Shown: in pieces, positions 19,827 to 52,487 of the stretch
Position numbering within the stretch: position 1 is the first letter of the stretch
Layout of the letters: each line of letters opens with the position of its first letter
Source of the DNA: Eledone cirrhosa
Lineage: Eukaryota
Assembly (NCBI GenBank): GCA_964016885.1
Contig: OZ024741.1
Span: forward strand, 232,376,001 to 232,440,000
Direction: 5' to 3'
DNA: 64,000 nt
Program-made: the position numbers and the translations under genes
Notes under the pieces: model-generated
What the model saw: only the letters and a program-made list of their open reading frames with translations
Told to the model about the DNA's origin: nothing
Database searches by the model: none

Positions 19827-19970
19827 AATGCAAACCCGGATTTTACGGAGCTAACTGTGAACATAATTGTACAGATTGTGTAGACATGGCATGTGATATG
19901 AATAATGGTAAATGTGAAAAAGGTTGTATCAAAGGTATGACTTGGAATGAAGAAATTATGAGATGTAAAG
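19827..19970 (+). CDS. EGF-like exon 1 (144 bp, phase 1/1, open): xCKPGFYGANCEHNCTDCVDMACDMNNGKCEKGCIKGMTWNEEIMRCK
   Basis: tttcacag|AA ... AAAG|gtaagt. Eight Cys in a CxxGxYGxxCxxxCxxCxxxxCxxxxGxCxxGC spacing resembling MEGF10/SCARF-type laminin-EGF repeats. Confidence 0.85.
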
Positions 19971-20729
19971 GTAAGTGAATTTACGGATATATGTGTGAAT
20001 ATAATTGTACAGATTGTCTAAACATGTCATGTGGAAGTTTTATTGGTGAATGTCTGCTGGTTGTAATACAGGAAAGGAATGGGATGAACATTTTAGTAAA
20101 AGTAAAGGTAAGTGACATTTTAGTTGGGAAGATATTACTTTTTACTTGGTCGTTCTATAAATGCTGTGTGTCGAAAGTGTTGTTAGAGTGTGGGGAATAA
20201 AGACTTGGGGTACTTATTCCGTTTTCTGTATCCATCTAGGACTGAATTTGTTTACGAATGTTGATGACATGTGCGGTGGCAATATTTGTCTCGGCATTAC
20301 GCATTCTGAGCTTATATTCCAATATATCCTATTAGGTAAAGTGAGACGTAACATTTCACTCCATTTATGTCAACCTGGCCCTTGGTTGTTTTTAGCAGAG
20401 TTTATTCTTTTGTAATTATTTGAACATGACTCTGGTTTGACTATAAATTCATTGGTATTACAAGTCAACTTAATGAAAGTTAAACTTGACCCTTCTCTAG
20501 GTAAACAAAACTTGCTAATGTTTTGAGATGATGGGCTCTATCCTTCATGCTTTGATTAAGCGAAAAGAAGAAAATATGTGGCAAATAGCTTATAAAGAGG
20601 GCTCCTCAGAAATCATCACTCTCATAGTATAATTCTCACCTCCTTTTGAAAGCAATACACTTTACTTGCATCATACTATTTAACATACATAATACATAGA
20701 GACGCTAATACTAGTAGAACAGACATTAA

Positions 20730-21200
20730 TTAAATGCACCACCAGCCGAAATTTGTTCAGCTTTTATTTCTATCGCATTATGTCTTTGATCTGTTAGACG
20801 GAAAATACAATCAGCCAGGTAGCACCTTCGTTCCGCCATTTCACTTAGAATGATTGTGATTTGCTCTGCTCGGCATTGTTTTATTTGTAAACGAAGTTCA
20901 TCATTTGATCTTTTGTAATCTTTCTCAGCCAAAATTGATGGAGCACATTCAGCTTTCTCGAAATTGTTGCTCTGTTTTCAGGTCGCTTTAGCATACACAG
21001 CTGTGTGGAGAACGACTGTGTCGTAGAGACGAAGTTTGACATCTGCACTCATATTTGAGCCTGGGGCAAAAAAGTGCATTCACTGTAACAACTACACCGC
21101 CTTTCCAATTTTGCTGATGACGTCCAGTTCATTGTTGCTTTTGTTGGTTCACTTCACTGCGGCTTCCTTAAATGGTGTTGTCTCCCTCCATCATCAACTA
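20730..21200 (-). mobile_element. Ancient RTE-like LINE C-terminal fragment, co-duplicated in most array introns
   Basis: Minus-strand remnants ISKIGKA..SADVKLRLYDTVV...AVYAKAT..ERRCYLA..FRLTDQR resemble the post-RT region of RTE LINEs. Paralogues at ~22470-22940, 24420-24910, 29840-30090, 32190-32660, 33580-34090, 35440-35900 and 37140-37640. Confidence 0.65.
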
Positions 21201-21618
21201 ACCCAATATTTAGCTGCTACAGATTTGTACTAGTTTCTGCTATTAAGGCGATGTTGACAGACTTGTGTGTTCTCTCCATGAAATTCATTCTCTGGTTCTA
21301 CCATGAGGGTGCGTGTCTGTGTGTGTTGGATCATATATGAGTTTTTAATTATTATGCAAAATGTTCGCGTTTGTTTAGTCATACACAATCCCTTTGAAAG
21401 ATATTAGTTTGTACATTGGTGTATGGTGCGGAGAAAGCTGAAGCGTCTTGCGCGTTTCTGGTATCCACCGTGTCTCGGAAAACACTCAGTGATCAGGAAC
21501 CTTTTGATAAGTTTAAGTTTAATTGTGTACGAATGCCTTCCCTCGTAGCCTTGCAAAGCTTCCATCGTAGGATATATGTATATATATATTTACGATAGTT
21601 GTGTATTCTCTTTCACAG

Positions 21619-21762
21619 AATGCAAACCTGAATATTACGGATTGAAGTGTGCAAATAATTGTACAGATTGTGTAGACATGGCATGTGATAAGTATATTGG
21701 TAAATGTGAAAATGGTTGTATCGAAGGTATGGCTTAGGATGACGAAATTATGAGATGTAAAT
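21619..21762 (+). pseudogene. EGF-like exon 2 (144 bp) with in-frame TAG at the conserved Trp position
   Basis: cag|AATGCAAACCTGAA ... GGT ATG GCT TAG GAT ... AAAT|gtaagt. Confidence 0.8.
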
Positions 21763-48876: not shown

Positions 48877-50129
48877 TATGTCGAGCCGAAATGCACAAAA
48901 ATGGGGCATGGTGGAAATAATCTGACTTCTTATTTGGATTGAAATTACTCAGATTGACTTGAATATGCTATTTTAGTTTGAGCAAAACTTTTGTGCTGGC
49001 CAAGCGTCAATAGTAATTAACTGCATACCTACTTTTGCACCCTTCCGGTATATACATGAATCCTAAAACAAACAATCCGTCCATATTTCCTTCAAGATAA
49101 AAGGAAATTAAAGTAAATTTAGCCTCATAAGACCGCAAAATTAATTTAAGTAGAAGGCCTAACCGCCAACGCCATAGCAAAATCAAACAACAATTGAAAT
49201 TCAATTTTAATGGCATTTATTTATACTGAAAATAATCCAAACATTTAATAGGGAAGGTTTAACTTACCAAGTAATGAGGTCGCTGACTTTTTAACGCTTT
49301 GTAGCATACAAAGGTAGTACAGTGCAAATGAAGCTACTAAACAAATTGAACCAACAATTGAAATTCAATTTGAATGGCATCTACTTATACTGACAATAAT
49401 CCAAATGTCTAATCGTCTGCAAGTTGTGAAAATTTGCTATCGTCTGCGCGTTCCATAAAAGGGAAATAACTCGTTTCTCATCTCTATTTATACATTTGAA
49501 CTGAAAAATCAATACATTACAGATTCGATTTTTGCATATGGCGTGGGTCGATTTGAACATTTTTTTGACCGATGTCTCCGCTGGAGCTTCATCTATAAGT
49601 GTCAGACAGACAGACAATCTCAGTTTTATATATATAGACTAGCAGAAAACCCCCCGGTGGGCGGTTTTCTGCTAGCAAATCTAGTGTATATACTGATATT
49701 GTTGAGTTTGGATGAGAAATATTTTCGGCACCACATGTTCACCGTCTCTCGGTGTGTCTTTTATGCATGTATAAATATATATGTTATCTATACGGTGAAA
49801 TTTTTGAAATAAATATATGTTAAAACGAAAAAGGAGAAAAAGAGATTAGTGACGGAAATATATACGTTATGATACATAAACGTTATGATATAACGATGGA
49901 AATATATAAACGTTTACGATAAAACGATGGAAATAGAAACGTTTATATATAATGATAAGCCGAAACACTCGTAAGCCGAAACACTCGTAAGTCGAAACAC
50001 TCGTAAAGCGAAACGTATAAATAAAGATTAATGTAATGAATTTGAAAAGCATAGAGATTTGAAACCGCGTCTATTTGTTTCCTTGGCACTTTTTATAGAC
50101 GGACAGACAGACAGACAGATAGACAAACA

Positions 50130-51290
50130 GAGAAATGCCCATATATTTCTGTGTGTGTGTGTATATATATATATATATATATATGTATATATATATATAT
50201 ATTACACACACAGAAATGTATATATATTTCTGTGTGTATATATATATATATATATATATATATTTATTACACACACAGAAATGTATATATATTTCTGTGT
50301 GTATATATATATATTTCTGTGTGTGTATATATATATATATTACACACACAGAAATGTATATATATTTCTTAGAACAAAATTATTATTAATGTTTTGCTGT
50401 TCATAACAATTGGAATTGAAAAATTACTTTTGAAATTATTAGTTATTTTACTAATGCTTAGATATGTAAAAATGAAGCAATGTTTCTAATAATTGTTTCT
50501 ACTTTTGGCACAAGGCCAGCAATTAACCAGTACATTACTGGTACTTTATTTTATCGACCCCGTGAGGATGAAAGGCAAAGTTAACCTCGGCGGTATTTGA
50601 ACTCAGACCGTAAAGGGACGTAACTCCATGCTATGAAGCATGGTGGCCGACTCTCTACAGATTCTGCCAATCCACCGCCCTAATATCTGTACGTAATGAG
50701 GGAGTGAGAGGGGAGAGAAAGAAAGGCAGAGGTGAAGTGATGAAGTGACTCTCTCCTCCTCCTCCATCTCCCCATTCGTCACAGCGATAGAGGGGAGGAA
50801 TGTTAGTGTGTTACAAAGAGAAAGAGTGAGAGTGAGAGAAACGGACAGACTAAAAGAGAGGGATAGCTGGAGAGAGAGAGAGAGATAGCAACAGATACAG
50901 TACAGTAGCTAAGGGATGTATATATATTTATGTGTGTATATATATATACATTTCTGTGTGTGTAATATATATATATATATATACACACAGAAATATATAT
51001 ACATTTTTGTGTGTGTATATATATATATATATTACACACACAGAAATGTATATATATTTCTGTGTGTATTTATATATATATTACACACACAGAAATGTAT
51101 ACATATATATATATATGTGTAATATATATATATATATATACACACAGAAATATATATACATTTCTGTGTGTGTATATATATATATATATATATATATATA
51201 TATTACACACACAGAAATGTATATATATTTCTGTGTGTGTATATATATATATATTACACACACACAGAAATGTATATATGTTTCTGTAGC
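50130..51290. repeat. Palindromic minisatellite ACACACAGAAAT(GT/AT)ATATA(T/C)ATTTCTGTGTGT plus (TA)n, in two clusters (50130-50370 and 50916-51290)
   Basis: More than 10 self-complementary units in both orientations. Confidence 0.85.
50490..50680 (-). mobile_element. Octopus-type SINE
   Basis: Reverse complement of the 9042-9217 family. Confidence 0.85.
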
Positions 51291-52453
51291 ACTCCTCAAT
51301 TCCCCCCTCTCTCCCTCCCGCTATCCCCCTCTTGTAGTCTGTCTCTTTCTTTCACTCCCACTCTCTCACTCTCTCTCTCTCTACGCGTGCGAGGAAAATA
51401 TTCGCACGCGCGCACGTGTTTCCCCTGTCGGACAGACAGACAGAGGAATTGCTGGTTATATATTATAAGGAGATATCTCCTTTCTGCACGACTGTCTGTC
51501 TACATGCCGCTATCGTCTCTCTGCACAACTTTATCGCTTATATCAACCCTCTGCACGACTGTCTGTCTGCACAACTTTATCGCCTATATCACCTCTCTGC
51601 ACGACTGCCTGTCGCTTAAAATCATTGCTTCTAAATGAAAATCTCATAAGGCTTTATTCGAGAGAAATGCTTTTTTTTACAAAATATTTGCTTGTTTTAC
51701 GGTGTATTCAAATAGGCTTGTTTTCAAGTAAAAATATTGTTTTAAAAGACTGTTTAATGGAAATGAAGCAAAATGGAAGCTTAATGTTGAAACTTCGAAA
51801 TCATGAATTTTGCAGGTTAAAATTTTGCTGGCCCGAAAACTGTTCGTGTATTCTTGTACTTTTGCACGCATTGTTTATTCGTAACGTAAATAGATAAACA
51901 GAATGACGCCATTAAAGGGAAATAACTCGTCTCTCATCTCTATTTATACATTTGAACTGAAAAATCAATACAAATTCGATTTTTGCGTTTGGCCTGGGTC
52001 GATTTGAAAAGGTTTTTGACCGATGTCTCCGCCGGACCTTCATCTAAAAGTGTAGCAATTTCACCGAAATTTGATCGTACGGTTTAGATGTGTGCCGACC
52101 GTTTTAGTAGACATACAGACAACCTCAGTTTTATATATATAGATAAACAATTGTTAATATAGTTAGAAATGTCAGTGGTGTGAATGTGTGCGAGTTTAAC
52201 AGCACTGTATATATATGTGTTCTGTAGGCGTATTGCTTATAATAAATATTTCTTACATAGGTAAACTCATATAAACTAGCATATTTATTAAGAAATGTAA
52301 TCGACGTGACTATATTAAAGTTAAATAATCTACCGACGACGTAGTTGCGACAAAAAACAAAATCCTCTCGCAACGTAAGAGATAAAGTAAGCGAGATAAG
52401 TTTCTATTACGTTACACAGTGGTTGATAATAAAATATTTACATGATGTTTCAG

Positions 52454-52487
52454 GAAGAAACGACGAGGAAATCAAGAACAAGTCTAA
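52454..52487 (+). CDS. Predicted cytoplasmic-tail exon (phase 2 start): (W)KKRRGNQEQV*
   Basis: Acceptor gatgtttcag|G completes TG+G = Trp from the TM exon and gives a KKRR stop-transfer cluster immediately after the helix. It lies in non-TE sequence between Helitron blocks. Confidence 0.55.

Follow-up and report, generated by a model that had tools for sequence, protein, structure and literature searches.

Does a row of nearly alike exons in the octopod Eledone cirrhosa encode a receptor whose outer part is recomposed from one mRNA to the next, or is it the remainder of a gene that has stopped working? The stretch of DNA analysed here, called the window, is 64,000 nucleotides long (contig OZ024741.1 of assembly GCA_964016885.1, 3.0 Gb, positions 232,376,001-232,440,000). 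It carries nine paralogous exons for an eight-cysteine unit related to epidermal growth factor (EGF) and MEGF repeats, followed by a transmembrane (TM) exon and a tail exon. In the first-pass annotation this array was taken for a single Dscam-like gene forced to choose among its exons by stops in two of them. That view is not supported, the array being one of six loci that share the exon and its siblings A and B having all their units open (4/4 and 8/8). The window copy, called C, probably lost its head and broke recently, as one member of a cluster of SCARF/MEGF-like lectin receptors that evolves by birth and death.

The exons on which this question turns are given below by their positions in the window.

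19827-19970, plus strand: stalk exon C1, EGF/MEGF-like unit, open
21619-21762, plus strand: stalk exon C2, in-frame TAG, both splice sites intact
23363-23506, plus strand: stalk exon C3, open, clustering with sibling exon B7 (support 95)
25351-25494, plus strand: stalk exon C4, in-frame TGA, ninth cysteine, donor GTAAAT
26120-26266, plus strand: stalk exon C5, 147 nt, open
31259-31405, plus strand: stalk exon C6, 147 nt, open, 1 nt different from C5
33061-33204, plus strand: stalk exon C7, open
34493-34636, plus strand: stalk exon C8, open
36317-36460, plus strand: stalk exon C9, open
42687-42777, plus strand: TM exon running from phase 1 to phase 2, with 37-39% divergence from its counterparts in A and B
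52454-52487, plus strand: coding part of the tail exon, W-KKRRGNQEQV-stop, without the acidic tract of A and B

All nine repeated exons (9/9) were located at the starts first proposed, and each has the AG/GT sites, the eight cysteines, the symmetric phase 1 and the length (144 or 147 nt) ascribed to it. The TAG of exon 2 and the TGA of exon 4 were confirmed as well, and so were the TM and tail exons, whose homologues follow in the same order in the siblings. The first picture was therefore right about the exons and overlooked six degenerate copies, the sibling genes and the missing 5' half. The exon copies of C differ by 1-28 positions per 141 compared nt, a likeness far beyond chance, and exon and intron together form a repeat unit of about 1.4-2 kb with 75-90% identity between copies. 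The introns (625-4992 nt) are all GT-AG and the exon lengths are all multiples of 3. In the exon tree, C4 has the longest terminal branch among the C exons.

When the whole assembly was searched with the DNA of one exon, 33 matches came up, every one of them on the plus strand of the same contig at 230.98-232.87 Mb. The survey of this 2-Mb region covered about 726 kb, and among the stretches examined six loci with a stalk exon were found (A, B, C, D, E and G); locus H is listed with them.

Locus A: 4 of 4 stalk units open; N-terminal exons, EGF exon, two-exon lectin-like domain, TM and tail
Locus B: 8 of 8 stalk units open; N-terminal exons, EGF exon, two-exon lectin-like domain, TM and tail
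Locus C: the window copy; 7 of 9 stalk units open; head absent
Locus D: one open unit, then ordinary MEGF exons
Locus E: seven open units and two units without acceptor
Locus G: 231.84 Mb; one damaged unit; stops and frameshifts in head exons
Locus H: 232.46-232.56 Mb (head 232.46-232.50 Mb), downstream of C; stops and frameshifts in head exons

The exon was amplified in A, B, C and E, with all copies in the same phase, and each of these genes has its own TM and tail exon. In D-type members and in the named Octopus proteins, the lectin is followed by one or two units. Loci G and H have become pseudogenes.

The family of the stalk unit was recognized from its homologues. A profile of six window exons matched 325 proteins at E<=0.001; among 20 matches that were looked up, 10 were named MEGF6/10/11 or draper-like by cluster, the rest being unnamed, hypothetical or otherwise named. 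The nearest named homologues were Octopus proteins matching the unit over its full length. Their gene models consist of an N-terminal part, EGF, an F5/8-type galactose-binding (fucolectin-like) domain, one or two serial units and a TM segment, and end with a short tail or a phosphatase. The heads of the sibling genes were found using 163 homologue proteins as queries, and the head exons of A and B match the Octopus heads and are stop-free wherever translated. Among solved structures the best match of the unit was human SCARF1 (PDB 8hna), a weak one (E=0.013) over the first 29 of 47 positions. The Pfam check suggested in the first-pass annotation yielded one weak match among 6-7 single-exon queries. 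Word-indexed homologue searches returned none of 28 candidates with the lectin exon of B and only 2 of 1144 with the unit alignment. C has a single TM segment, judged from sequence, and a small cytosolic tail. Homologues, TM and tail thus support the proposal that the cassette exons are EGF-like and belong to a type I membrane receptor with a short tail, for which a role in recognition is plausible by analogy.

The galactose-binding/fucolectin domain is present in A and B and absent in C. The lectin exon of A matched PF22633 with E=2.8e-5, under the curated cut-off on a half-domain, and the Octopus homologues scored above this cut-off. Fucose binding by canonical F-type lectins relies on the motif His...Arg-x-Asp...Arg. 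By eye, the motif His and Asp are replaced in both A and B, and in A the first Arg is replaced too. Sugar binding by these domains is uncertain because the canonical residues are partly replaced. The accessible part of PMC3269628, consulted for the definition of F-type lectins, does not spell out this motif.

In C, every 5' exon found in the siblings is missing, including the EGF, lectin-like and N-terminal exons. Two other features fill the window upstream of the array.

1-2603, no strand: end of a 35-bp satellite array, occupying the place of the gene's head
2604-19600, no strand: repeats and transposon remains, with Helitron open reading frames (ORFs) at 12015-14791 and no head exon

The satellite spans contig positions 232,249,708-232,378,603, which makes 129 kb of a 35-bp unit with about 93% identity between units, and no non-satellite bin of 500 nt was found within it. 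Homology to the array stops about 200 nt upstream of exon 1, and apart from dispersed repeats, nothing in the 17 kb that separate the satellite from exon 1 was homologous to the A and B head introns. Used as DNA and as translated queries, the head exons of A and B detected no head exon between the 3' flank of B and C. The first-pass annotation had called for a search for upstream exons and a signal peptide; it led to the satellite and the transposon remains instead of head exons, and neither a signal peptide nor a first exon was found for C, the first exon of A and B not being located either. Across the assembly, at least 6 matches were obtained with the EGF0 exon, at least 5 with lectin exon 2 and at least 40 with lectin exon 1 (with an identity of 55% or higher in at least 5 cases), none of them between B and C. 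The close head-exon matches belong to A, B, D, E, G and H, which leaves no spare close head among the matches. H was considered as a misplaced head of C and rejected, since the head exons of H are broken and MEGF-type 3' exons of its own follow them. As C lacks all the 5' exons of its siblings, the stops in exons 2 and 4 need no splicing explanation.

A, B and C are colinear across introns and 3' flanks with 9-11% divergence, which by this comparison makes them duplicates of the whole gene, or of nearly all of it, that are similar in age. In the exon tree, A1-A3 pair positionally with B1-B3 (support 100 for A2/B2 and 98 for A3/B3), while the nine exons of C group without exception with A4 and B4-B8 in a distal clade (support 100); C therefore also lacks the first three stalk exons. 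The dead units of E have lost their acceptor whereas the stop exons of C retain their splice sites, which fits a gene that is no longer under selection. Lost 5' exons and nonsense codons in exons with intact splice sites are the features of a duplicated pseudogene, and C has both. The fallback offered in the first-pass annotation, a decaying exon amplification, comes close to this reading.

The following course of events is proposed. Unequal crossing-over would have amplified the symmetric phase-1 stalk exon, and live members would splice the units in series, so that stalk length and surface would vary between genes and not between mRNAs. A, B and C would have arisen by whole-gene duplication at about the same time, all three being then diversified by positive selection, probably in a host-parasite or self-recognition context by analogy with related receptors. 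C would have lost its promoter, its lectin and its first three stalk exons, at a site where transposons and satellite now stand, and would be a young pseudogene beginning to gather stops. The cluster as a whole would turn over by duplication and loss, G and H being dead.

Signs of diversifying selection were found in codon models in which the extra codon of C5/C6 was omitted and the stop codons were masked; these tree-based tests are weakened by the gene conversion that is evident between units. Omega was 2.6 across the 12 units of A and B (p ~4e-4 vs omega=1), 5.1 in B4-B8 (p ~4e-3), 1.7-1.9 in E (p 0.04-0.08) and 0.9-1.1 in C (p 0.8). Against the baseline of 9.7% divergence between A and B introns, lectin exon 1 (17%, p=2e-4), stalk exon 3 (20%, p=2e-4) and stalk exon 2 (15%, p=0.03) of these genes were more diverged, the excess not being significant for lectin exon 2 (p=0.06) and stalk exon 1 (p=0.09). 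The TM exon (42687-42777; contig 232,047,004 / 232,220,355) was the fastest-evolving exon tested, yet it is still hydrophobic and ungapped. A, B and C differ in this exon by 37-39% in all three pairs compared with about 10% in introns (p<1e-10), and lineage counts place the excess on all three branches, with 13 changes per 87 on the C branch vs 3.9 expected. Such a rapid change of the TM helix suggests that it pairs with a membrane partner in a manner specific to each paralogue. As far as these substitution patterns tell, the cluster is diversifying, and C was part of this until recently.

Part of these data sits badly with a copy that is simply dead. C has lost none of its cysteines or splice dinucleotides, where about 11.6 losses would be expected neutrally over the terminal branches, and both of its lesions are stops (p ~0.035 under neutrality). 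The excess of lineage-specific changes in its TM exon (13/87 vs 3.9) points the same way, and C5-C9, TM and tail are intact consecutively. The ratio of nonsynonymous to synonymous changes, counted by parsimony, is lower on the terminal branches of C than in its siblings, a borderline difference (46/9 vs 107/6, p=0.04; vs 43/2 for distal units, p=0.11). An omega near 1 with invariant cysteines is no proof of neutrality. Finally, the satellite is a likely site of assembly collapse. The absence of cysteine and splice-site losses together with lesions limited to stops indicates that C worked for most of its history; it would either have died recently or still be in use.

One way for C to be in use is that it is complete and live, its head missing from the assembly through collapse of the satellite or from the haplotype, with exons 2 and 4 skipped or the allele null. 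The selection signals that reach into the recent past of C agree with this, and the gap in the gene coincides with the 129-kb satellite. However, no contig yielded a spare close head in the searches, the matches being lower bounds; the 17 kb before exon 1 do not resemble the A/B head introns outside dispersed repeats, and the counted parts of the B-to-C stretch contain no N. Such a hidden head is therefore regarded as unlikely.

Alternatively, C may serve gene B as an alternative 3' module, the head and first stalk exons of B being spliced over about 190 kb into C, for example into C5-C9, with the TM and tail exons of B itself bypassed. C lies directly downstream of B on the same strand, begins about 200 nt before an intact acceptor and has only distal-type exons. 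Both stops lie on the 5' side, leaving five open exons, the same number as B4-B8, and the cysteines and splice sites are wholly kept while the TM exon is fast on the C branch. There is a precedent in a snail lectin gene, which in the accessible part of PMC13712769 is annotated with a terminal exon that is used in a mutually exclusive way and stems from tandem duplication of part of the gene. Against these points, the arrangement requires read-through of the terminal exon of B and of the 129-kb satellite, the 3' flanks of A, B and C are colinear as in whole-gene duplicates, and the broken neighbours G and H make gene death common in this cluster. We hold it to be quite improbable. If true, one lectin head would come with two stalks and two membrane anchors. 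Its stronger form, in which C is a live shared-head module with the lectin head of B spliced over the satellite and a variable inclusion of units, is slightly less probable again. Should it hold, each head would have several stalk lengths and a second, strongly diverged anchor and tail, and a cephalopod would diversify its receptors somatically via alternative 3' modules.

The Dscam-like reading, in which a single gene would include just one or a few of the nine exons in each mRNA and so build a combinatorial ectodomain, draws on the tandem same-phase exons with their strong splice sites, on the diversifying selection in the family and on C4, which appears long relaxed as expected of a skipped exon. 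The 5' constant exons are absent, however, the sibling units are all open and ordered, and the Octopus gene model P0026 has two units in series. Exclusive exon choice can be ensured by steric hindrance, by spliceosome type or by nonsense-mediated decay (NMD), none of which would operate with long GT-AG introns and exon lengths that are multiples of 3. Base pairing of a docking site with selector sequences is a feature of Dscam-hv; a 9-mer scan for it gave 0 and 1 candidates vs 0-1 in controls, the longest inverted repeats being microsatellites, although a docking site could have gone with the lost head. Altogether, this mechanism is very unlikely for C. Lastly, an origin of the units as captured fragments or as members of a dispersed transposon family, for which only the Helitron remains on both sides of the array speak and which the first-pass annotation had named as a possible refutation, is effectively ruled out by the confinement of all 33 matches to the plus strand of one 1.9-Mb stretch, the position of the units between lectin and TM exons, their invariant cysteines and a 3' flank colinear with A and B well past the Helitron.

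With C being probably a relic, it is the cluster that invites comparison with known systems. By architecture, A and B resemble the snail LG5R and SudRes1 receptors, a likeness drawn from sequence and analogy. According to the available text of PMC13712769, LG5R subgroup 1B of Biomphalaria consists of SCARF-like receptors that cross the membrane once, bear galactose-binding/fucolectin signatures, have a small cytosolic part and lie under a parasite-resistance peak. Like these scavenger class F-like receptors, the Eledone genes combine MEGF/SREC-like EGF repeats with a lectin-type domain in a tandem cluster. Unlike them, as far as that text goes, the stalk is one amplified 48-residue exon in 4, 7, 8 or 9 copies; C, without a lectin, stands outside the class, and a link to a phenotype is known for the snail cluster only. 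In the portion of PMC12297450 consulted, SudRes1 of Biomphalaria sudanica comprises clustered MEGF/galactose-binding-domain (GBD) receptors with copy-number change and loss of EGF domains between haplotypes. These receptor protein tyrosine phosphatases (PTPs) share with the present cluster the clustered paralogues, the copy-number differences and the many nonsynonymous differences. They differ in their phosphatase domain, which is absent from the short-tailed A, B, C and E and present in the Octopus homologue P0026; no PTP match was found in the cluster stretches examined.

Closer at hand, the Octopus MEGF10-like and fucolectin-tachylectin-4-pentraxin models P0026, P0080, P0090 and P0111 have the same EGF, two-part lectin, 8-Cys unit and TM, with one or two units only and in some cases MEGF repeats or a PTP thereafter; a long stalk of the 8-Cys unit was not seen among the Octopus models examined. 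The ectodomain of human SCARF1/SREC-I (PDB 8hna), the best though weak structural match of the unit, has no lectin domain. With arthropod Dscam-hv, the array shares tandem paralogous exons of the same phase in a receptor ectodomain, but its units are EGF/MEGF-like and those of Dscam are immunoglobulin (and fibronectin) domains. In the accessible text of PMC3364881, Dscam-hv has constant flanking exons with one-of-N inclusion, and a mollusc examined there was without it; in C, constant exons are found on the 3' side only, not on both sides of the array in an intact gene. No paper on this cluster in cephalopods was found in the literature covered, which consisted of titles and abstract openings, with few subscription journals and without supplements. 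By analogy, the cluster may be the cephalopod counterpart of the snail parasite-resistance lectin-EGF receptor clusters, and its members are candidates for innate or self recognition in octopods. Its interest lies in an exon amplification that would set stalk length and in a strong diversifying selection that appears to reach the membrane anchor.

The remaining features of the window concern the degenerate exon copies and the interval between TM and tail.

19980-20104, plus strand: acceptor-less stalk-exon remnant; further remnants start near 23514, 25502, 26276, 31413 and 34645
43454-52131, minus strand: insertion of about 8.7 kb in the TM-tail intron, not in sibling A, with Helitron Rep/PIF1 fragments inside

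Six such degenerate copies without acceptor lie directly 3' of exons 1, 3, 4, 5, 6 and 8. Two similar remnants are present in sibling B, so that the remnants are older than the B/C split. They were considered as exon extensions and rejected, read-through past the donor hitting a stop immediately. The units are also mosaic. C5 and C6 (26080-26330 and 31219-31465) differ by 1 nt in the exon and their flanks diverge beyond about 60 nt, and C3 and C4 (23363-24006 and 25351-25994) differ at 22 of 144 nt in the exon and at 13 in the following 500 nt, a pattern suggestive of crossovers at the ends of exons or of gene conversion there. In gene E, two open stalk exons are 93 nt apart (231,006,730-231,007,110), far closer than other units.

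The TM-tail intron is about 1 kb in the siblings (seen in A) compared with the insertion-bearing intron of C. In the tails of A and B, a GAA-rich repeat encodes a long, acidic run of Glu residues (L037 8180-8330 and L033 1470-1680), which C and E are without. Two decayed Helitrons (Helitron_like_N, PIF1) flank the array, at 12015-15446 on the plus strand and 44308-48294 on the minus strand. Helitron capture of the array was rejected, its 3' flank being colinear with A and B far beyond the Helitron. Another element, at 6773-11333, has a 347-nt direct repeat at both ends (97%), and one of the introns of A holds a related copy; Pfam was uninformative on the ORFs of this element, which by its motifs is Penelope-like. 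This segment was also considered as a remnant of a head intron and rejected, the matching piece of A being an insertion absent from B and the segment itself being bounded by a direct repeat. Finally, 26 of the 40 lectin-exon matches lie on contigs C16, C20, C22, C23 and C27 with 33-36% identity, many equal scores and a spacing of about 100-200 kb, and apparently represent a second, larger and young lectin-gene expansion.

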